From a virus (taxonomy: Duplodnaviria > Heunggongvirae > Uroviricota > Caudoviricetes): a stretch of DNA of 64,000 nucleotides. A program made the translations under genes and the position numbers. A model generated the notes under the pieces. The model saw nothing but the letters and a program-made list of their open reading frames with translations. It had not been told where the DNA came from and made no database searches. The stretch is taken from IMG/VR virus record IMGVR_UViG_3300019755_000001; one strand, written 5' to 3'. Positions 4,571-57,377 of the stretch are shown in pieces (position 1 is the stretch's first letter; each line of letters starts with the position of its first letter).

Positions 4571-5693
4571 TGCCTAGTTCAGCTTCCCATCGTTCGGCTT
4601 TCTCCGTGTCTGTTAATCCGTCTAACCCTAGTATATCTCTAGTAAATAATTCCGTATTTCCTGTGCTCATTACTTTATCCCCCTTGTACTTGTGTCTAGT
4701 GTACTTTTTTAATATGTGTTGCTCCACCTTGTAAGCGGAAGCGCCATTATCGTATTCTGTTGTATAGATTAGTCTTATCTGGTCTCTATCGAACTGAGTC
4801 CTATATCTCTGCTCTATGCTTTGTGAGGTCAGCCCTATTTTGTAGAGGTCTGTTCCTATTACGTTGAAGTAGTAAACCATACACTTTTTATGGATGTCTC
4901 CTTTACCTCCTCCATAGCTTACACAGTGTTTGCAGCCATAGCCACTTAAGTGCCCTGATGCCAGTTGTTCAAAATCTCCGTGTTCAGGGCATGTTATTGT
5001 AATCTTGTCTCTAGCAGCTGTATACGTAGTCTTATCGTAGGTATACTTATCTCCGTGAACTTTCTTTGCTTTCTGGATAAATTCCTCTTGTGAGCACTCT
5101 TTACTCTTGGCACTAGAGACTACCCCACACTTAGGACACCCTGTACCATTTAAGTGGTTTGTAGGGGATTGACTAAATCTACCATGTTCAGGGCATATAA
5201 TCGTCACAGGAGTAGTTGATAACGTATACTCGACTTCAGCGTAGTCGAACTTGTTTGCGTGTAGTATGTTTGCAGACTCTATGAAACTTACAGTAGTATG
5301 TGTATTATTGCCGCACTTTGTACAACCTTTACCAGCTAGGTGTTGGTCGCAGCGTTGCTCAAACTCTCCATGTACGGAACAGATAATTTTTACTTTATTC
5401 CTAGAGGTCGCATTAATTACTTTGCTGTAATCATATACGTCTCTATGTACTTTACGGGCCCGCTCTATGAAATTCTCGTCAGTCATTTTAATTCTGACTC
5501 CGGCACACACAGGACACCCTTGTCCTCTGCCATAGTGCTTCGAGGGAGACTGCCAGAAGCCTCCGTGCTCAGGACACACTATTTCAATCTTTGTTTTTGC
5601 GTCTATGTATTTCACCTTACTATAATCATACTTATAATTATGCTTATTGTTAGCTCTTTGGATAACTTCTTCAACTGTTAGTGACTTCGCCAT
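4542..5693 (-). CDS. homing-endonuclease-like protein: four N-terminal Cys/His repeats plus a C-terminal T5orf172/GIY-YIG-like domain
   Basis: 383 aa. Four ~48-aa repeats of the form (V/K)H.DxYDYSKV...I.CP.HG.F.Q.P..HL.G.GCP.C. The C-terminus (VYYFN...YKIGLTSQSIEQRY...STGNTELF) matches the T5orf172-type GIY-YIG-like fold. Confidence 0.6.
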   Translation of the reverse strand: MAKSLTVEEVIQRANNKHNYKYDYSKVKYIDAKTKIEIVCPEHGGFWQSPSKHYGRGQGCPVCAGVRIKMTDENFIERARKVHRDVYDYSKVINATSRNKVKIICSVHGEFEQRCDQHLAGKGCTKCGNNTHTTVSFIESANILHANKFDYAEVEYTLSTTPVTIICPEHGRFSQSPTNHLNGTGCPKCGVVSSAKSKECSQEEFIQKAKKVHGDKYTYDKTTYTAARDKITITCPEHGDFEQLASGHLSGYGCKHCVSYGGGKGDIHKKCMVYYFNVIGTDLYKIGLTSQSIEQRYRTQFDRDQIRLIYTTEYDNGASAYKVEQHILKKYTRHKYKGDKVMSTGNTELFTRDILGLDGLTDTEKAERWEAELGNENKKKAGK

Positions 5694-25762: not shown

Positions 25763-25872
25763 GCAGTATTAGCTCAGTTGGTAGAGCACTTTCCAAGTAA
25801 TTGTCTGGAGAACACCCTCTAATTAAGAGGTGCAAGAGAGTTAGGTCCCTGGTTCGAGCCCAGGATACTGCA
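25763..25872 (+). tRNA. tRNA-like gene, 110 nt, with a ~35-42 nt insertion in the anticodon region
   Basis: Perfect 7-bp acceptor (GCAGTAT/ATACTGC). Canonical D-arm (TAGCTCAGTTGGTAGAGC), variable loop AGGTC and T-arm (CCTGG-TTCGAGC-CCAGG), discriminator A. Between the 6-bp helix ACTTTC/GAGAGT sits 42 nt that contains its own hairpin (CACCCTC-TAATTAA-GAGGTG). No canonical 7-nt loop with U33 could be derived. Confidence 0.45.
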
Positions 25873-42916: not shown

Positions 42917-42987
42917 GAAGCATTCGTCTAGTGGTAGGACCACAACATTAAAATCAGTGTACCCAGGTTCGATTCCTGGATGCTTCA
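42917..42987 (+). tRNA. tRNA-like gene, 71 nt, with an enlarged anticodon loop
   Basis: Perfect acceptor GAAGCAT/ATGCTTC. D-arm GTC-TAGTGGTAG-GAC. T-arm CCAGG-TTCGATT-CCTGG, discriminator A. The anticodon region CACAACATTAAAATCAGTG only forms a 3-4 bp stem with a ~9-13 nt loop. Confidence 0.4.
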
Positions 42988-43043: not shown

Positions 43044-43122
43044 GGACATTTAGCTCAGTGGTAGAGCGCCTGCACTAGCATGAAATAACAGGAGGCCACA
43101 AGTTCAACTCTTGGAATGTCCA
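43044..43122 (+). tRNA. tRNA-like gene, 79 nt, with a ~15-nt anticodon loop
   Basis: Acceptor GGACATT/AATGTCC. Canonical D-arm TAGCTCAGTGGTAGAGCG. The 5' anticodon stem CCTGC is followed by ACTAGCATGAAATAA and then (A)CAGG. T-arm CAAG-TTCAACT-CTTG. 3' end A-CC. Confidence 0.4.
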
Positions 43123-46406: not shown

Positions 46407-46556
46407 ATGGACAGTATACACGACCCACTAACTCAAGCAATCATTTACAGGGCGGAGATCTTGGAACGTCTGGAGTTAACAATACACCAATCTGAGCGTG
46501 ATAATTTAGTCAGTGTATTAACTAAACTAGATACATACATATTGGAGCAATCATGA
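46407..46556 (+). CDS. hypothetical small protein (49 aa)
   Basis: Not in the ORF track. AAAGGAG RBS; ATGA overlap with the polymerase gene. Confidence 0.35.
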   Translation: MDSIHDPLTQAIIYRAEILERLELTIHQSERDNLVSVLTKLDTYILEQS

Positions 46557-49210
46557 TTAATTTACTGCTCACTGAATTTATTCCAGGATACACCCAATCA
46601 ATTAACCAGTACATCAAGTCGGAGTTTGATCTTGAACCAACTGACTTGAACATCATCATGGTCGGCTCGTTACCACGTGATGACGGCAAGTACTTGATTG
46701 ACCATTTAGTCGGTACGGTTGTTACGGATTACTGGCAATTCAAATCAACTGACAACGTTCGACGAATTGACGACATGGCAACTGTATCTGATGTTGGTGA
46801 TATTGTAGCATCTCATTTCATCACACCAAAAGTTTGGTACACTGATGAAGTAGAAGTAGCCCAACGCTGGCTGGCTAAGTTACCAAGCACTTTTGCTTAC
46901 GATACAGAAACTCGTGGTCTAGCAATCAAGGACATTGGTGACATTACTATGCACTCATTTAGTATCCCCAAAGGGAACTCTATTGTGCTTATTGACTCTC
47001 CAGTTATTCGTGCGCTAATCTTTGATTTTCTTATAACTACTGAGCAATCTGTGGTTTGCCATAATCTTGCTTTCGATATGAGACCAATTTATCGAGCTAC
47101 TAGTAAGTTCATCAAGAACTACGAGGATACTCAACTAATTGCTCAAGCATATATGAACAACGCCAAGCAGCCTTTATTTAGCTTGAAAGCTTTAGCTGGC
47201 GGATTATTAGGTGATTGGGCTTCAGCAAAAACCTCTTTTGAACTTTATGAAGACTCTACTGACTATGACAATCCCAACCTAGTATATGTCGGCTCTAATC
47301 CTGATGTAACGAAGTACAACTTACCTCTTATTTACTACGCAGGGGTAGATACAACCGCTACAATCCATTTGTGGAACAAGTTTTCACGAATCGATCCTGA
47401 GTTTGAATCAGTGGATATTGGGGACTTATTACCAATTCCTGAACCAAGGTACCATGAGGAATCCCCACGTTTCTTCTATGAGAACGTACTGAAGCCTCTT
47501 ATCCGTACAAATATTGAACTATTGGAAACACCAATGCCTATTGATATGGGTATTGTTGAGGAGATTAAGCAGGAGGCATTGGATCAGAAGGAGCCCGCAT
47601 TTGATAAGCTGCAGAATTTCCCAGCTGTTATGGAGTATATGGCAACAGTCAAAGCACAACTAATTACCAAGTTAACTGAACCTTTACTGGAGCAGAAGCG
47701 TAACTGGCCTGTTCGTGTATATAAACACACACCAGCTGATCGTACGTTTGTGATGAACAAACTAACTGGCGAATCTCGTGATTCCTGGAAGATTGTTGAT
47801 ATTAAGCAGTACTTGAAGGAGGAAGAAGCACCTGACCCACTAGTTCAAGCAATTCTTGATAAGTCGGATAGCTTGCCTACTAACTCACGTATGCAAATTC
47901 TCATGAAGAGTCATCGTACCCTGAACCAAACCAAGTTGCAACATAAGCTTGATAATCCTGAGCAGTATCTTGACCCTAAGCAAACTGTAATTAATCCAAA
48001 TGCGTCACAGCAAATGCGTGGATTATGGAAGTCTTTGGGCCTTGAGTCTGATGTACTTACTCCGAAGAAGGAGGAATCTTTCAGTAAGGAAGTACTTGAG
48101 TCCATTGTGAAAACAACGTCTAACCAAACCGCGAAAGAGGTGATTCAGCAAGTCTTGGAAATTGCAGCTACTAAGAATTTACTTTCACAGTACATCCCTG
48201 CCTACGAACATAGCAGCAAAGATGGTTTTTGTTATCAATCAATGAAGTGTCCTGGTACCAAATCTTACCGTATTTCTGGAGCTGTTGGGAAGGTTGATAA
48301 ATCTGTTATTTCAGATGAACCTCTGTCTGGTTTTGGTGCGTCAATGGTAACACAACCAGGAATCACCAAGCGAGCAGTTGTTGCTCCTGACGGATTTATT
48401 ATTGCTACGTCGGATTATGCAGGTCTTGAGGGAGTAATTGGGGCGTGTATTACACATGACCCAAACAAAGTGGCTATCTTTAACGATGGTTTGGATCTTC
48501 ACTGTCTTAACGCAGCTTCTTTCTTCCAACCGGAAGTAGAGGAGTTACTTGGTCGTCCTGTGGAACAAACTCTGGAGTTCAACAAGTTCTTCAATGCGTT
48601 CAGGAAGGAACACAAGTCTGCCGACAAACTACGTTCAGCTGCTAAGTCTCCCAATTACCTTCTTGAGTATGGTGGGTATCCTCCCAAACTCTCGAAAGAT
48701 TTGGGTTGTAGTCTAGCTGTTGCACAGAGTATCTTTGATAAGTTCCATTATGAGACGTTTTTAGGTACTACCAATTACCGTGAGGATTATGTGTTACCTA
48801 CTGTTGTAAAACAAGGGTACTTACATCTTGGTCTGGGTGCGCGAATTTACTCTAGCAATCCCCAGAAGGATATACGTACTGTTACGAATGCAGGATATCA
48901 ATTCTGGTCTATATTAACTCTCATTGGACTGTACCTTATCAAGGAACGAATTAAGTCGGCTGGGTATGAGCATGATATTTTTATCTACTCAACTATACAC
49001 GATTCTATTACAGCATATGTACGACAGGACCCAGCTATTATTAAGTGGTATAATGACAACCTTATTGAGTGTATGGTACCGGATTTTCTTATTGACCAGG
49101 AAGTAACTCTTGAGTCTAATGTGGATATTGGCCCATCGTATGATAAATGTGTGGAACTACCAAACGAATGTTCTATTGAACATATTAATCAAGTCTTAGC
49201 TACTTTTTAG
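46553..49210 (+). CDS. DNA polymerase I family (family A) with 3'-5' exonuclease domain
   Basis: 885 aa. Exo I motif FAYDTETRGL. Pol motif B RSAAKSPNYLLEYGG (R..AK..N....YG). Motif C region YSTIHDSI. Confidence 0.85.
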   Translation: MINLLLTEFIPGYTQSINQYIKSEFDLEPTDLNIIMVGSLPRDDGKYLIDHLVGTVVTDYWQFKSTDNVRRIDDMATVSDVGDIVASHFITPKVWYTDEVEVAQRWLAKLPSTFAYDTETRGLAIKDIGDITMHSFSIPKGNSIVLIDSPVIRALIFDFLITTEQSVVCHNLAFDMRPIYRATSKFIKNYEDTQLIAQAYMNNAKQPLFSLKALAGGLLGDWASAKTSFELYEDSTDYDNPNLVYVGSNPDVTKYNLPLIYYAGVDTTATIHLWNKFSRIDPEFESVDIGDLLPIPEPRYHEESPRFFYENVLKPLIRTNIELLETPMPIDMGIVEEIKQEALDQKEPAFDKLQNFPAVMEYMATVKAQLITKLTEPLLEQKRNWPVRVYKHTPADRTFVMNKLTGESRDSWKIVDIKQYLKEEEAPDPLVQAILDKSDSLPTNSRMQILMKSHRTLNQTKLQHKLDNPEQYLDPKQTVINPNASQQMRGLWKSLGLESDVLTPKKEESFSKEVLESIVKTTSNQTAKEVIQQVLEIAATKNLLSQYIPAYEHSSKDGFCYQSMKCPGTKSYRISGAVGKVDKSVISDEPLSGFGASMVTQPGITKRAVVAPDGFIIATSDYAGLEGVIGACITHDPNKVAIFNDGLDLHCLNAASFFQPEVEELLGRPVEQTLEFNKFFNAFRKEHKSADKLRSAAKSPNYLLEYGGYPPKLSKDLGCSLAVAQSIFDKFHYETFLGTTNYREDYVLPTVVKQGYLHLGLGARIYSSNPQKDIRTVTNAGYQFWSILTLIGLYLIKERIKSAGYEHDIFIYSTIHDSITAYVRQDPAIIKWYNDNLIECMVPDFLIDQEVTLESNVDIGPSYDKCVELPNECSIEHINQVLATF

Positions 49211-51608: not shown

Positions 51609-52199
51609 ATGGGAGCAGAATTTTTATCAAATCATTACAAGTACTGCACAAAGCAGGAACTCGAGGAGCAAGTTACTCGTGACACTGAACAAATGGCTAA
51701 TGAGTATGGTTGTGAGTACTCTGGTACATGGGCGTCAAAAGATCAAGGAATTATCTACTTAGATCAAGTATTTACTTCCCTGGATGAAGCAAATGATCAA
51801 ATTTATTGTCACAATGACAAATGGGGTCCTCTTTGGGCCTGTAAGGTTGTCATATCGGAACCAAGTACAGGTGAATCAAATAAACTCAAGGCAGCTGAAT
51901 CACAGTTCTTTGAAGCTAGAGACAGCATACCAAAGCTTGAGCAATCAATTATCAATTCTATGCGTAACGTTAAAGCAACACGTAGAACTTGTAAGAGTTG
52001 TACATCAGCAATTGCAACTAACTTCATCAACTCATTGAACTGTCCGGTTTGTGGTAACAAGCTATGTTCACCAACTGATCATACTCGACTGAAGTCAGCA
52101 CACAAGAAGCTCGAAAGAGCAACCACTAATCTACAACACATCCGATCCACTAGCAAAGCAGAAATGTATTGGGTAGTAGGCGGTAATTGTAGCTCATAG
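51609..52199 (+). CDS. hypothetical Cys-rich protein
   Basis: 196 aa; AGGAG RBS. Confidence 0.5.
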   Translation: MGAEFLSNHYKYCTKQELEEQVTRDTEQMANEYGCEYSGTWASKDQGIIYLDQVFTSLDEANDQIYCHNDKWGPLWACKVVISEPSTGESNKLKAAESQFFEARDSIPKLEQSIINSMRNVKATRRTCKSCTSAIATNFINSLNCPVCGNKLCSPTDHTRLKSAHKKLERATTNLQHIRSTSKAEMYWVVGGNCSS

Positions 52200-52210
52200 A
52201 AAGGATATAC

Positions 52211-52828
52211 ATGAGCAATATTGAATCAAAAATAGCAACCGACCTTCAGCACCTTGTTAACCAGTACGAAGCCGAACTAGGTTTTTTACAGAACCGTAAC
52301 ATGCGTCAATTTGACACATCTGGTCTACCATCAATCATGCAGGACATGATCAAGTTAGCTACTAGCAAATCACCATCATTCTCGAACGTGTCTGCACTGA
52401 GTGTAGCCAATTTCGTTCTTAGCCATTTATTTGGACAGTGTCGACCAGTAATCAACGACCCAATTTATTCGGACGATGTTATTGGTATCAACACATATGG
52501 AATGGTAATCAGTAAGTCTGGTTCTGGTAAGGACTCAACTTACCAAGCTTTATCGAAGGCAACTGCATCAGCACTTGAGCTAATCAACTCTATGCAACGT
52601 GACGAAGCCGAGGAGAAAGCCAAACTATCTTACTGCAAAGCGATGAAGGCAGCTAACCCTGAGTTTGACGAGAGCACAGTGACTATCGAGGACTTCAAGG
52701 ACGAAGTACCGAAGTTGGAGATGGCTATTACCAGTCTTGCCTCAACTCGTGGCGGACTTACTTCATCGATGAACCGAATGGCGAAGTCTCAATTTGGTAC
52801 TAAGTCAATCTTCAGCTCGGAATTGGGT
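52211..52828 (+). CDS. exon 1 candidate of an intron-split P-loop protein (or stand-alone 206-aa ORF)
   Basis: GMVISKSGSGKDST is Walker-A-like, similar to T7 gp4 SGSGMGKST. The last sense codon GGT ends in U at 52828, immediately before the in-frame TAA. Confidence 0.45.
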
Positions 52829-54026
52829 TAACTAACCAGCCCCTCGTACTCGTGAGAGTATGTAGCAAAATTCTTTAATTGTCTGGAACGTCTTGTTAGG
52901 CGTACACTAGGATATTACCACGAAAGTAGGTAACGAACCCTGAAAATGTGTACGATAGAGAAAATCAGCAGCGAAGCATCGTAGTATTAATTTACCGATG
53001 AACGTTCAACGAACATCCCGTCAGGGAGTAGAACCTCTAGTTATAAAATGAGGAAGAAATAGGAATAAACTAACTTATTTAAGTTACAAATAAATATTTT
53101 CTGCTATAATGTTATTAAACATAATAGGAGAACATAATGGAAGAAATACATAAAGATATCAAAGGCTTTGAGGAATTATACTCAATTACCAGTAAAGGTA
53201 GAGTTTACTCTAAACGTAGTAAGATCTATTTAACACTGGCAAAGTCTATCCAACCGCAAACAACCTATCTTAGGGTGACATTACAAGACAATGGCAGAAT
53301 CGAGAGATTCTTAGTCCACCGACTTGTAGCATCACACTTCATAGACAACCCAACTAACAAACCGTGCGTAAACCATATTGACAATAACGGGTCTAACAAC
53401 TCAGTTAACAATATCGAGTGGTGTACCTATTCAGAGAACCTCGTACATGCTCAATTACAGGGTAGGCTATTTGAGTCTCAGTCTAAAGGCGGACAAGCAG
53501 CAAATGCTAAAGTTCAAGCAGAAATCGCTGAACAAGTAGCAGAGTTAACTGGTCGTACATTTGGTTTATGGGAAGTCACAGGATTTCACGGACGTGAAGA
53601 GATTGGGACGCAAGGAATGTTCAGATTTAATATGAATGTAACTTGTACAGGGTGTGGAACGGATTCAGTAGTTGATAAAAATCAATTAATCTCTGGTAAA
53701 TCTGAAGGTTGTTTAAGTTGTAGGACTAAACAAGCTGGAAGAGAACGTTCAGTTAGGACATTGGAGAAACTCAAAGGCACATATAAGGATCACTGGCATA
53801 TACTGGATTACTACTTCGACGATGAAGTACAAGTCTTAACTTGTCAATGTACTTTATGTGGTGATACTACTGATAAAAAGAAATCTAGTCTTATAGGACG
53901 GCCTATGAGAAAATGTAAAATTTGTAAAAATAAATAATTTAGTTTAAGATATGTTCTAATCTTACAGGAGACTGTAAGCGAGTTAAAAGCTCGGAGTAAG
54001 TGTAACGCCTTACTTGAATATAAATG
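52829..54026 (+). mobile_element. candidate group I intron (~1.2 kb) carrying an HNH homing endonuclease ORF
   Basis: Core-like elements: P AATTGTCTGGAACG (52877-52890); Q AATCAGCAGCG (52963-52973); R GTTCAACGAACA (53004-53015); S AAGATATGTTCT (53946-53957). R GAACA pairs with S TGTTC. A GCCCC guide at 52841 can pair with the exon-1 end GGGU. Terminal G at 54026 leaves exon 2 in frame. Confidence 0.45.
53137..53937 (+). CDS. HNH homing endonuclease (NUMOD4 + HNH_3 type, I-HmuI-like)
   Basis: 266 aa; AGGAG RBS. NUMOD4-like GFEELYSITSKGRVYS. HNH_3 motif FLVHRLVASHFIDNPTNKPCVNHIDNNGSNNSVNNIEWCTYSEN. C-terminal Zn-ribbon Cys pairs. Confidence 0.8.
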   Translation: MEEIHKDIKGFEELYSITSKGRVYSKRSKIYLTLAKSIQPQTTYLRVTLQDNGRIERFLVHRLVASHFIDNPTNKPCVNHIDNNGSNNSVNNIEWCTYSENLVHAQLQGRLFESQSKGGQAANAKVQAEIAEQVAELTGRTFGLWEVTGFHGREEIGTQGMFRFNMNVTCTGCGTDSVVDKNQLISGKSEGCLSCRTKQAGRERSVRTLEKLKGTYKDHWHILDYYFDDEVQVLTCQCTLCGDTTDKKKSSLIGRPMRKCKICKNK

Positions 54027-55694
54027 ATGGCAATCCAGTCTAACTCCACTATCATGGAAGTTCTTGAGCTTTTCTCAGTTCTTTTCGATATGGGGCAGTC
54101 TGTTGCACCGGAGTTCAAGGGCCTGGAGTCGAAGGAAGAAGCAGTTGATAACGCTTATACTAATTTACTTGGTATTAGTTCACCAACTCCATTCTACCAA
54201 GCAGATGGTAACGTTCGTAAGTTGCTGGTACCAATGTTAACTACTTCATTAGCTCGTAGAATTACTGTTGTTTTCTCTAATGCTAAAGAAGAGTTTGAGA
54301 ACAAGGTAATCCCAGGAACTCCTGCAGAGAACCGTACTCGACAAGCCGAAGCTAGGCAGAATGTTAGGGAACTTACTCTATCAATCGACGAACTTATGTT
54401 AACTGCTATCAAGTCAATTATGGACGACGGACAAATCATGTTCGACGAGGATGCAGCAATTGTATACGACGACTACAAGTCATATACCAACACACTGAGC
54501 GAATTACTTCTGTTGAAGGATGGTGAATCTGTGGAAGGTATCGAGATGGCAGGTAGAGCGTTCAAGATGGGCAGGATCGCAGCAACTTGGGCAATGGCAC
54601 AGAACAAACGAACTATTGACAAGCAAACACTAATCGCAGCAATTTACTTCTGTGACTACACTGCGGAGCATCTTAAACGTTTTGCAGCAACTCTGGAACT
54701 CAAAGACTATGAGCTGTTCATCAACGATTGGGAGCAAGGTTTTTTCGACAATATTTTACCAATTGACGAAGCAATCACTCGTGGATACATAACTACTCGG
54801 CAAGTGAACAAGGCAGCCCTTGAGGGATTTCTTAAGCCTGTTAACTCACGTTTAGCTGGTACAGCAACTGTTTCATACAACGACAAGGACAACGCATTTG
54901 TGTTTATTCCAGTTGTTACTAATACGGTATCCGGTGATTATTCATTCAGAGCAATCTCAACTTTCTCTGACGAACGACCAATCCATGCGATTCACGAAAA
55001 TCGTCCAGCCGAGTCTCTTGGCAAGTTGACTAGCAAGTTATCATCATTCAATCCATTTGTTGATGATACTACCAAATTCATCTGCCTGTCTGTTACTGAT
55101 TCATTTCTGTCTATGCAGCAAGTGAACACATACTTAGCCGATACACAGCACTTTATCAGCACAGTAGAACCGAATAACAACCACTCATTCAACTTGGTTA
55201 TTCCGTTGAACACGGTTATTAGCAAGTCTGAGTACAAGTTTGTTTGTTTATCAGTTGCCGAGCAGATGATGTTGAAAGCCTTACCAGAATTACACGAAGC
55301 GGAGTCTATTTACCACGGGGTGAACGATTCTGTTCAACTTACTCATCAACCTGATGCGAAGTTGTTTGATGTGTCTGGTATTGTCGGTAATTACGCAAGT
55401 GGGTCTGATGTACCATTGCTAACTGTTAAGTCGAAGACGAAGCCAGCAAAGAACATTGTTGATAAGTATTTAAAAGATGACATCCTAGCCCATCGAGGCG
55501 ATATTGTCGACATGCTTGATGCATCTGACAATCCACTATTACTGATGGCAGGATTGTATTACGATATGGCTTGTCATTATGTGCCAACTGAACGTGCTAC
55601 TGACGTTGTCAACAACATTAACTCAAGCCTTATTGAGTCAATCCCATCAGCGGTGATTACTGAATTTGTAATCGAACCATTTCAATCTATTTAG
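54027..55694 (+). CDS. exon 2 candidate (556 codons) of the intron-split protein; function unknown
   Basis: The ORF opens exactly after an in-frame TAA at 54021-54023 and has no RBS. This is consistent with expression only after splicing to 52828. Confidence 0.45.
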   Translation: MAIQSNSTIMEVLELFSVLFDMGQSVAPEFKGLESKEEAVDNAYTNLLGISSPTPFYQADGNVRKLLVPMLTTSLARRITVVFSNAKEEFENKVIPGTPAENRTRQAEARQNVRELTLSIDELMLTAIKSIMDDGQIMFDEDAAIVYDDYKSYTNTLSELLLLKDGESVEGIEMAGRAFKMGRIAATWAMAQNKRTIDKQTLIAAIYFCDYTAEHLKRFAATLELKDYELFINDWEQGFFDNILPIDEAITRGYITTRQVNKAALEGFLKPVNSRLAGTATVSYNDKDNAFVFIPVVTNTVSGDYSFRAISTFSDERPIHAIHENRPAESLGKLTSKLSSFNPFVDDTTKFICLSVTDSFLSMQQVNTYLADTQHFISTVEPNNNHSFNLVIPLNTVISKSEYKFVCLSVAEQMMLKALPELHEAESIYHGVNDSVQLTHQPDAKLFDVSGIVGNYASGSDVPLLTVKSKTKPAKNIVDKYLKDDILAHRGDIVDMLDASDNPLLLMAGLYYDMACHYVPTERATDVVNNINSSLIESIPSAVITEFVIEPFQSI

Positions 55695-55695
55695 C

Positions 55696-56481
55696 ATGAT
55701 CCGTCTATCAATCCGTCACGTCCCTGGGTTTACCAAGGAGGATAGGGAATACCAAACGCATTTCAACCGGTATGTAGAACGTCACTTCAGTGATTTACCC
55801 AAGCTCTTGCGGAACGATTATATCTACTCACCGTTTTCATTCCTCGGATACAAGCGTGGTACGGAGAACATTTGTAGTACTACCAACTTTGTAGTGCTGG
55901 ATGTGGACACAACCACAGTATCGATTACGGAACGGCATGCTGAGCTACTGGCCGAGGAACTAACCCACATCGTGGCAACTACTTCTGACCCAACCAACAT
56001 GCACAAGTACCGTATCTTATTCCCACTGGATAAGCAAGTTACCGACCTGGAGTATCGACGAGTTGTTCGTGGAATCGCGTCTAACGGACTGGTCACGGAC
56101 ATGGACGTTGGTGCATCTGTCAAGGCAGGTGGCTTTATGTTCAGCTACTCAGGCTCGACTGTTCTTACTCATTTTACTGGCAATTCATTGTCTGTTGATG
56201 ACTATATGGTCGAGGACGAGCAAGTTGACTATTCCAGTATGAACCCCCAGGAACTACTGGACAACTTCGAAGCCGAGTTCAGCTCATACCGCAACGCATT
56301 GCCTGGCAAACGTACCAAGTCCTTATTCAGTGTAGCCTTCAAGTTACGTGAATCTGGTTGTACGTTCGAGCAAATCGCAACTGGTGTGCATGCAGTCAAT
56401 CGCATGTTTCTTACCCCTAAATCTGAGTATGACGTAAATCGCCGAGTTCTCAGCAAATTCAAACACAAAGGACAAACATGA
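55696..56481 (+). CDS. archaeo-eukaryotic-type primase (prim-pol) with PriCT-like C-terminal domain
   Basis: 261 aa. NFVVLDVDTTT (DxD) and YRILFPL resemble AEP catalytic motifs. The C-terminal GKRTKSLFSVAFKLRESGCTFEQIATGVHAVNRMF resembles PriCT_1. Confidence 0.45.
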   Translation: MIRLSIRHVPGFTKEDREYQTHFNRYVERHFSDLPKLLRNDYIYSPFSFLGYKRGTENICSTTNFVVLDVDTTTVSITERHAELLAEELTHIVATTSDPTNMHKYRILFPLDKQVTDLEYRRVVRGIASNGLVTDMDVGASVKAGGFMFSYSGSTVLTHFTGNSLSVDDYMVEDEQVDYSSMNPQELLDNFEAEFSSYRNALPGKRTKSLFSVAFKLRESGCTFEQIATGVHAVNRMFLTPKSEYDVNRRVLSKFKHKGQT

Positions 56482-57377
56482 ATCTAAGTGAATTAACAAT
56501 CACACAAGCCAAGCAGTATACTAGTCACTTCCCCCTTTTATTAGTCGGGTCGAATTCTAGTGGAAAATCATTCGCAGTTGAGTCTATGGACCCAGCCGAC
56601 AAGGCTAGGACTGTAGTACTGAACTGGGATCTTAAGCCAATCGGAGACGGTTCGGAGACTGAGTTCCACAGCCTGTATCAAGCAGCATCAACTTCTGAGA
56701 ACCTTGACAAGCAAATTACTCTACTTACTGCCAAAGGTAAGGAACTAGCAGCAGAGGATGCTAAACACCCAGCTCTACCAAGATTGAGAGCACAAGTGAA
56801 GGAACTGAAGAAGCTGAAGGCACAATCATTCTTCATCGACGATATCGAAGCAATCGACAAGGTTGTTGCTGTTATCCTGGAACTGACTTTCAACAACGAT
56901 GTTGACAGACTAGTGACAGACACATTAACTGCAATGACGGACTTCTGTGAAGCATGGGCTAACCATAACTTCGACGGAAGGGAAGTATGGGCTAACTACG
57001 GTGTTGCTCATCAGAGGATTTTACAAGCAATCAAGGAAGCAACTATCTTTGGTTACAAGTACACATACGTTATGGCGCACCATGACTTCATCCCAGCTGC
57101 ACAGTACGCAACTACACCTAAGCAAGTTATCGCTGTTAAGGGTGGTATTATGAAAAACAACGTGGAAACACACTACAACACAATCGTATTTGCACACGTT
57201 ACTGAGGATGCAAGCAGAGTATTCGAGTGTGACAACGACAGCTCACTGGACACATCGAGAACGAAGGTAGTTGACGGTAAATTTAGCTTTGCCAGAACTT
57301 CACTTGACGACTTGGAACAGATATTTGCCGGTCTGAAGGTAGTTGTCGATGGCGAACTGGTACCAAAGGAGTCGTAA
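56478..57377 (+). CDS. P-loop ATPase (replication-associated)
   Basis: 299 aa. Walker A LLVGSNSSGKS. Walker B-like FFIDDIEAID. Confidence 0.45.
   Translation: MNLSELTITQAKQYTSHFPLLLVGSNSSGKSFAVESMDPADKARTVVLNWDLKPIGDGSETEFHSLYQAASTSENLDKQITLLTAKGKELAAEDAKHPALPRLRAQVKELKKLKAQSFFIDDIEAIDKVVAVILELTFNNDVDRLVTDTLTAMTDFCEAWANHNFDGREVWANYGVAHQRILQAIKEATIFGYKYTYVMAHHDFIPAAQYATTPKQVIAVKGGIMKNNVETHYNTIVFAHVTEDASRVFECDNDSSLDTSRTKVVDGKFSFARTSLDDLEQIFAGLKVVVDGELVPKES

Follow-up and report, generated by a model that had tools for sequence, protein, structure and literature searches.

A probable mobile group I intron with an HNH endonuclease gene in a primase-like gene of an uncultured N4-like phage

Introduction

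Are two neighbouring phage genes, set apart by 1.2 kb of DNA that itself contains an endonuclease gene, really two genes or the halves of one? The question is raised by three plus-strand open reading frames (ORFs) in a 64-kb stretch of the IMG/VR viral record IMGVR_UViG_3300019755_000001 (hereafter the window; all coordinates are window positions). The outer ORFs, 52211-52831 (206 aa) and 54024-55694 (556 aa), lie on either side of an HNH endonuclease ORF, 53137-53937 (266 aa), which has an AGGAG at 53126-53130, 6 nt 5' of its ATG. A preliminary description of this DNA had reported two co-oriented ORFs with an HNH gene and its ribosome-binding site between them, and these coordinates, the strand and the AGGAG are as it gave them. 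The first ORF ends in ...UUG GGU directly followed by UAA (TAA 52829-52831), and the last opens with ATGATG straight after an in-frame TAA (54021-54023); as also described, it lacks a ribosome-binding site, with no purine-rich Shine-Dalgarno sequence in the preceding 20 nt, which belong to a hairpin. The flanking ORFs have a G+C content of 0.42-0.44, and the 1.2 kb between them one of 0.34-0.38. The description went on to propose that a group I intron with an HNH homing endonuclease splits a P-loop ORF. The exon junction, the covariation of the RNA and the likeness of the endonuclease to I-HmuI support this proposal, and we consider it very probable that 52829-54026 is a mobile group I intron of IA type, predicted to splice, in a replication gene of an N4-like phage.

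Results

The flanking ORFs form a single interrupted gene

Joining 52211-52828 to 54027-55691 gives an in-frame protein of 761 aa across ...GGU|AUG GCA... (...SSELG|MAIQSN...), in agreement with the spliced product of ~761 aa (...SSELG|MAIQS...) predicted in the preliminary description. The locus then consists of exon 1 (52211-52828, plus strand), a DUF3987 / N4-type primase-like sequence of 206 codons that includes a Walker-A-like SKSGSGKDS and whose final base U52828 is the predicted 5' splice site; an intron of 1198 nt (52829-54026, plus strand), which starts with the in-frame UAA and terminates at G54026; and exon 2 (54027-55694, plus strand), with 555 codons and a stop. What looks like an ATG start at 54024 is in this arrangement the intron's closing three bases (AUG), and in a related intron on metagenome contig L004, described below, the called ORF likewise starts at the intron-terminal AUG.

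Profile and homolog comparisons treat the fused product as one protein. It passes the Pfam DUF3987 cut-off (31.5 bits against 27), whereas exon 1 alone falls below it (18.1 bits), and it matches the phrog_2135 'DNA primase' profile in one stretch (residues 64-424 against profile positions 34-383, 91.4 bits, 8.7e-26), compared with 64 bits over positions 181-383 for exon 2 alone; by profile the host gene is therefore a member of the DUF3987 / N4 gp43-type 'DNA primase' (phrog_2135) family. In tblastn, N4-like phages of Alteromonas, Salmonella, Shigella and Erwinia have primase genes that align in one piece across the junction, at 23-24% identity for those of the Alteromonas, Salmonella and Erwinia phages. 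Moreover, when the fused protein was compared with homologs lacking the insert, as the preliminary description had suggested, a large protein collection yielded ~65 uninterrupted clusters (750-768 aa, 55-63% identity) covering 99-100% of its length, and the alignment runs over the junction without a gap (SSELG|MAIQSNS in the window, ASELG(L/M)AIQSNS in the homologs). The agreement extends to the DNA, in that the intron-less viral contig L002 reads GAACTTGGT|ATGGCAATTCAA where the spliced window would read GAATTGGGT|ATGGCAATCCAG, which is nearly the same sequence; the L002 allele also contains ...GAACTTGGTATGGCAATTCAA..., and the intron-less DNA TTGGT|ATGGCAAT is reproduced by the join 52828|54027. 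The terminal G and the frame-restoring exon join expected of a group I intron are both present in the sequence, at G54026 and 52828|54027. These alignments establish, as far as comparison of sequences can, that 52211-52828 and 54027-55694 are one gene split at exactly 52828/54027, whose product appears to be a primase/helicase-like replication protein with a Walker-A-like motif and a predicted primase role.

A conserved, covarying group I core in the intervening RNA

The sequences resembling the group I core elements P (AAUUGUCUGG, at ~52877), Q (AAUCAGCAGC, at ~52963), R (GUUCAACGAACA, 53004-53015) and S (AAGAUAUGUUC, 53946-53956) occur in the order first described (52877, 52963, 53004, 53946), and they are the same stretches that the Rfam Intron_gpI model aligns with high posterior probability. 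The P7 pairing proposed between R GAACA and S TGTTC is also found, between GAACA 53011-53015 and UGUUC 53952-53956, as is the proposed pairing of the exon-1 GGGU (52825-52828) with an intron guide, here GCCC at 52839-52842. In the minimum-free-energy fold this P1 (52825-52842) extends to GGGUU 52825-52829 with AGCCC 52838-52842, and it contains the splice-site wobble U52828.G52839, which is identical in L004 and in an intron of Pseudoalteromonas phage H101; indeed the exon end UUGGGU|U and the guide AGCCCC are common to all three.

The remaining helices, all on the plus strand, complete a typical core. P2 is the hairpin CGUACUC GUGA GAGUAUG (52845-52862), with 4/7 pairs double-changed among three sequences. 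The 5' strand of P3 (UUCUU, 52871-52875) pairs with AAGAA at 53054-53058, the 3' strand placed by the helix map and covariation, and forms a pseudoknot with P7; 4/5 of its pairs are double-changed over five introns in a curated helix table. From 52876 to 53015 come J3/4, then the P4-P5-P5a-P5b-P5c-P6-P6a domain, in which 52922-52925 form a GAAA tetraloop, and lastly J6/7 and GAACA (53011-53015), which is the 5' strand of P7. This region was identified by blastn and by the covariance model R1 (see below), and its helices are 90-100% paired, with many compensatory changes. The hairpins P7.1 (53016-53027) and P7.2 (53034-53053) occupy 53016-53053, between P7 and the P3 3' strand. The P8 5' strand AAACUAA (53067-53073) is a perfect 7-bp complement of UUAGUUU (53939-53945), and the 865-nt loop between them, L8, houses the endonuclease gene; P8 is AGACUAA/UUAGUUU in L004, and the introns of Pseudaeromonas phage KLEP7, H101 and Shewanella phage KASIA have a P8 of other sequence. 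In the Rfam alignment the P8 3' strand is followed by J8/7 (AAGAUA, 53946-53951) and the P7 3' strand (UGUUC, 53952-53956), the whole spanning 53939-53956, with posterior probabilities of ~1 over AAGAUAUGUUCUAAUCU. The 3' part (53961-54026) comprises P9 (53961-53978, GAGA loop), P9.1 (53979-53993), P9.2 (53995-54014) and the tail UGAAUAUAAAUG to G54026. With the loop deleted, the minimum-free-energy fold contains P1, P2, the P4-P6 domain, P7.1, P7.2, P8, P9, P9.1 and P9.2, and P3 (52871-52875/53054-53058) and P7 (53011-53015/53952-53956) complete the pseudoknotted core, so that the P3-P8 and P4-P6 domains, the P/Q/R/S order and the R-S pairing of P7 are all present. Hairpins in the position of P7.1 and P7.2 are the hallmark of subgroup IA, to which we assign the intron; P9.1 and P9.2 are present too, P7.2 and P9.2 covary, and from the classification scheme we take the subtype to be IA2-like rather than another IA type.

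Six metagenome contigs from relatives (L004-L009) have the same architecture at the identical site: exon 1 codes for 214 aa and exon 2 for 555 aa, and the intron between them, 1199 nt long, has an HNH gene of 267 aa. The host protein is 61% identical to that of the window. The ribozyme parts of the two introns are 83-84% identical, compared with 69-72% for the exons and 71% for the endonuclease gene, meaning that conservation is higher in the ~390 non-coding bases on either side of the endonuclease gene than in the exons. Over 79 pairs, window and L004 differ by 13 compensatory changes, 3 one-sided changes that keep pairing and 0 disruptive ones: P7 GAACA/UGUUC becomes GAUCA/UGAUC, P5 UCUU/GAGA becomes UCCA/UGGA, and P9.2 is largely rewritten, with compensatory rewriting also in KLEP7 and H101. 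The window's A-U pair in P7 is U-A in L004, KLEP7 and KASIA, and C-G in H101.

More distant relatives were found in phage genomes by blastn with the ORF-deleted intron, which matched KLEP7 (81% identity over P3-P5, E 6e-17), the Pseudoalteromonas phages H101 (71% identity) and HM1, the terminase genes of KASIA and Escherichia phage Av-05, and the DNA polymerase region of the N4-like Escherichia phages KarlSchell_Bas89, KBNP1711 and LAMP. When the structure derived from the window was scored on five introns that MAFFT had aligned unsupervised, 84.9% of cells paired, versus 34-46% with the partners slid, and 41 pairs were double-changed, versus 8-15 when slid; the observed values were reached in 0/500 shuffles. 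In addition, R1, a covariance model that extends from J3/4 to the 5' strand of P7 and was built from the KLEP7, H101 and KASIA introns alone, matches the window once, at 52876-53015, over the full model length (116.4 bits, E ~1e-27). Together with the L004 comparison, these results demonstrate at the level of sequence and predicted pairing a conserved, covarying group I core that is homologous to accepted group I introns.

These data bear directly on an alternative explanation, namely that a free-standing HNH gene split the host gene and that the 206-aa and 556-aa polypeptides reassemble with no RNA splicing. T4-like phages offer a precedent, in that a free-standing endonuclease gene can divide a gene whose polypeptides then reassemble, as with nrdA and mobE of Aeromonas phage Aeh1; the pieces here are called as separate ORFs in every contig, and exon 2 happens to open with an ATG. 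However, that ATG consists of the intron's own conserved terminal AUG, with no Shine-Dalgarno sequence and with the P9.2 hairpin directly upstream, the break is codon-exact with no residue gained or lost, and it is the non-coding bases, more conserved than the exons, that carry the covarying core. We therefore regard protein-level reassembly as very unlikely.

A group I intron that splices fits these observations better, and several points nevertheless weigh against it. Searched at the gathering score of RF00028 (Intron_gpI), which is 50 bits, the whole window gave no Intron_gpI match, and Rfam reported just two tRNAs. A permissive search did return Intron_gpI on the plus strand at 52796-53128 (19.1 bits; from P1 to the 3' strand of P3, with AAUUG-UCUGG, AAUCAGCAGC and GUUCAACGAACA among the aligned stretches) and at 53845-53978 (21.7 bits; AAGAUAUGUUCUAAUCU-UACAGGAGACUGUAAG, that is J8/7, the P7 3' strand and P9). 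The two matches flank the HNH gene and are the sole ones in the 64 kb, though each by itself is weak (E 0.3 and 1.8 on the scale of the window). P1 has just 5 bp; P10 with exon 2 is weak, three pairs that are one base out of register as read from the sequence. The curated helix table was hand-assembled for three distant relatives in a manner that favours pairing, a bias absent from the comparison of window and L004 and from the MAFFT test. Finally, for this phage we infer from sequence the splicing itself, its efficiency and exact chemistry, and the activity and target of the endonuclease. The preliminary description had held that the lack of an Rfam group I hit would count against an intron; formally that lack is what the thresholded search returned, and we read it as an artefact and not a refutation, because the 865-nt ORF-bearing L8 splits the match into two parts that each fall below threshold. 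The ORF-bearing introns of contigs L021 and L025 are split likewise by the Rfam model, whereas ORF-less relatives score 73-77 bits (73.2 for KLEP7 and 77.1 for H101).

The weak P1 and P10 and the missing gathering-score match could also be taken to mean that the intron has decayed and no longer splices, leaving the host gene a pseudogene or one that works through fragments only. This too is a slender prospect: 13 compensatory changes against 0 disruptive ones separate exon lineages at 61% protein identity, J3/4, J6/7 and J8/7 are all intact, both exons are long open frames highly similar to uninterrupted homologs, and the same phage genotype is found in several sequencing runs, among the samples with this phage being SRR7051473. 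Least probable of all is a real group I intron with other splice sites, for instance a 3' site after G54029 or G54030, for while there are several Gs near the 3' end (54026, 54029, 54030) and the best P10-like pairing (UGG 54028-54030 / CCA 52836-52838, read from the sequence) is shifted by one base, only 52828|54027 gives the homologs' length, their ELG-M-AIQ and the intron-less DNA, the equivalent L004 site (...AUAAUG|UUAGCA) gives ELG-L-AIQ as in most homologs, and both alternative sites were rejected on homolog collinearity, as they would remove a conserved residue.

The intron encodes a relative of I-HmuI

The homing-endonuclease gene (53137-53937, plus strand, 266 aa) lies wholly within L8 and ends one base 5' of the P8 3' strand. 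Its product has NUMOD4 and HNH sequences in the N-terminal half (Pfam NUMOD4 31 bits, cut-off 23.4; HNH_3 17.4 bits, below the cut-off of 24.8) and four CxxC pairs in the C-terminal half, all four of which are kept in the L004 ortholog (68% identical). It matches phrog_59 at 6.6e-40, and its closest solved relative is I-HmuI (PDB 1U3E, E 5e-14, residues 6-128 against 4-121), which bears out the earlier I-HmuI-type designation; the HNH motif, the N-terminal NUMOD4-type module and the location in a peripheral intron loop are all those of this type. On these protein comparisons we identify ORF 53137-53937 as a relative of I-HmuI. Endonuclease relatives in viral contigs L011-L018 share the N-terminal domain alone (37-47% identity), and those contigs gave no R1 match at E up to 1.

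Upstream of the gene, L8 holds candidate expression signals (53083-53130, plus strand), consisting of a putative sigma-70-like promoter, a hairpin and the AGGAG. The promoter-like sequence, GTTACA-16-TGcTATAAT at 53083-53110, has 10/12 matches plus the TG, with such sites being no commoner in the DNA than in shuffled sequence; the hairpin (53104-53127, 10 bp with one mismatch) overlaps the Shine-Dalgarno sequence of the endonuclease gene. The two hexamers and the hairpin recur in L004. Transcripts from the candidate promoter would be without the 5' arm of the hairpin, and the arrangement resembles the control of I-TevI expression in T4.

Discussion

A model of splicing and homing

We envisage that the pre-mRNA folds into the P1-P9.2 core, that an external guanosine would attack after U52828, held in P1 by the guide GCCC 52839-52842, and that the freed exon 1 would then attack after the terminal G54026, the ligation ...GGU|AUG GCA... 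restoring the single frame ...SSELG|MAIQSN.... Unspliced RNA would stop at the intron's first three bases, UAA, and yield the 206-aa fragment only, exon 2 being without a ribosome-binding site of its own; full-length primase-like protein would consequently be made from spliced mRNA only. In a co-infection the endonuclease may cut or nick intron-less alleles, and repair would copy the intron in. By analogy with I-HmuI and other phage intron endonucleases, we infer that such homing is directed into the conserved SELG(L/M)AIQSN segment.

Known systems of similar design

The design is familiar from the DNA polymerase gene of phage SPO1, a replication gene with a group I intron that encodes the HNH nicking endonuclease I-HmuI. 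Unlike the window, SPO1 has a Gram-positive host and another target gene, I-HmuI is 174 aa long against 266 aa, with no counterpart of the C-terminal half and its four CxxC pairs, and blastn detected no RNA similarity between the two introns. In its RNA the window intron is closer in plan to the T4 td intron, an IA2 intron with P7.1/P7.2 and P9.1/P9.2 that follows exon UUGGGU, begins with an in-frame UAA and ends in ...AUAAUG, although td encodes a GIY-YIG endonuclease (I-TevI) in another loop, and blastn with the window intron against phage genomes gave no significant similarity to T4-type phages.

Within the N4-like group, group I introns with HNH genes are already known. The thymidylate synthase gene of Vibrio phage pVa5 has one (PMC5746245), and the annotation gives the DNA polymerase I coding sequence (CDS) of Bas89 as a join that encloses an endonuclease gene (Rfam 48.1 and 34.7 bits; the 3' part of the window intron has 77% identity to this region). 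Like the window, both are N4-like phages with such introns in DNA-metabolism genes, but the host genes, thymidylate synthase and DNA polymerase, are other than the window's primase-like gene. A non-exhaustive literature search found no report of an intron in a gp43-type primase / DUF3987 gene, and megablast of window 52000-56500 gave no match among phage records, so the phage is absent from that collection.

Shewanella phage vB_SspS_KASIA has HNH endonuclease genes inside or beside its split terL and DNA polymerase genes, and its terminase gene is annotated as a join of three pieces. Its first terL intron (L027 1943-2265; blastn 72.5% identity) has the window's P3-P7 core. Unlike the window intron, it apparently has no ORF of its own, its P2, P7.1/P7.2 and P9 extensions differ, and KASIA is a siphovirus in which the host genes are terminase and DNA polymerase. 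Sequenced cDNA from KASIA is missing the predicted introns (PMC8541194).

Related introns in several phage genes

The KLEP7 and H101 introns resemble that of the window in having P7.1, P7.2 and a P9.2 loop with UAACGAC, and differ in having no endonuclease gene and in their hosts, the tape-measure gene of KLEP7 and the portal gene of H101. These ORF-less introns (KLEP7, L024, OM654377.1, 2449-2727; H101, L026, KR534323.1, 1959-2257) are unannotated in the records, where the gene halves appear as separate CDSs: those of the H101 portal match phrog_113 positions 28-288 and 298-423, and those of the KLEP7 tape measure match phrog_5255 positions 185-430 and 454-719. Host genes of such a lineage would include the primase-like gene (window), portal (H101), tape measure (KLEP7), terminase (KASIA, Av-05) and, elsewhere, DNA polymerase. 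The window, L004 and H101 keep AGCCCC and UUGGGU in unrelated genes, which would fit reverse splicing as opposed to homing alone. At present we can only speculate that a single IA-type lineage moves between unrelated essential phage genes by ectopic reverse splicing into UUGGGU sites, ranging over phages of marine and aquatic Gammaproteobacteria; we hold this whole reading to be possible but doubtful.

Motif searches added little to this picture. A metagenome scan with the 3' motif returned the known contigs, a truncated copy in L019, and two introns, in L020 and L021, which have just the 34-nt P7-P9 motif AAGAUAUGGUCUAAUCUUACAGGAGACUGUAAG in common with the window intron; since these two are unrelated to it, the motif must be generic to the intron type and not specific to the window intron. 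An exact-pattern scan of viral contigs with the J8/7-P9 motif found nothing, and a match of the 20-mer GTAGCAAAATTCTTTAATTG in L010 was rejected as chance, lying within a tail-fibre-like coding region on the opposite strand. On its minus strand L021 (JAEIGA010629881.1) has two group I introns side by side (Rfam 54.9 and 38.8 bits), one truncated and the other with a LAGLIDADG-like ORF. Two of the contigs with the orthologous intron hold further insertions: in L009, R1 has a second match of the same intron lineage at 4791-4928 (67.6 bits), where 560 nt without a gene follow the primase-like genes, and in L008 a 235-aa HNH gene interrupts the DNA polymerase A gene (122-1124), with a weak R1 match at 167-240.

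The phage and its neighbouring genes

Gene order around the locus is that of N4-like replication modules: the split primase-like gene comes after DNA polymerase A (46553-49210, 885 aa, uninterrupted) and before an ORF of 261 aa, and a Sak4-like AAA_24 protein is encoded next. Metagenome contigs of 99-108 kb have the same genotype, and the source is an uncultured N4-like phage of roughly 100-108 kb. The 261-aa ORF (55696-56481), directly downstream of exon 2, matches phrog_2135 positions 482-709 of 713 and resembles part of the C-terminal region of the host-protein homologs (23-28% identity); it seems from this that the N4-type primase is divided or duplicated differently in this lineage.

Away from the intron, the window's tRNA genes have some irregular features. 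A 110-nt tRNA-like gene at 25763-25872, scored with 44.6 bits by the Rfam tRNA model, has canonical acceptor, D and T arms but 46 nt where 13 are expected in the anticodon-arm region. Neither ARAGORN nor the default Rfam gathering pass found it, and it could be an intron-bearing tRNA or a tRNA-like element. The tRNA at 43044-43122 has a 16-nt anticodon loop (CCUG-CACUAGCAUGAAAUAA-CAGG) to which ARAGORN assigns no anticodon, and that at 42917-42987 has mismatches in the anticodon stem.

A second kind of insert may occur in the host gene itself. The longest relatives of the host protein, P0002 (1045 aa) and P0067 (1071 aa), have inserts of ~317 and ~305 aa inside the Walker-A-like motif, at what would be ~52517-52540 in the window (SKSG|SGKDS); P0002 reads ...SKSG|CVDATTEF...IFLTGN|SGKDS.... 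With an initial Cys and a final Asn followed by Ser, the insert looks like an intein. Should that be so, the same gene would contain an intein in certain phages but in others a group I intron, and would be a recurrent target of selfish elements.

Implications for annotation and for N4-like phages

The element is an ordinary, well-preserved member of a well-known class of mobile elements, and it leaves the knowledge of intron biology itself unchanged. What it changes is the reading of the locus, in which two 'hypothetical' ORFs and a stray HNH gene become one 761-aa replication protein interrupted by a mobile ribozyme. For method, it teaches that Rfam scans at threshold miss ORF-bearing introns. 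With it, a primase/helicase-like gene joins the genes targeted by group I introns in N4-like phages, and links to an intron lineage that is unannotated in at least two published phage genomes.

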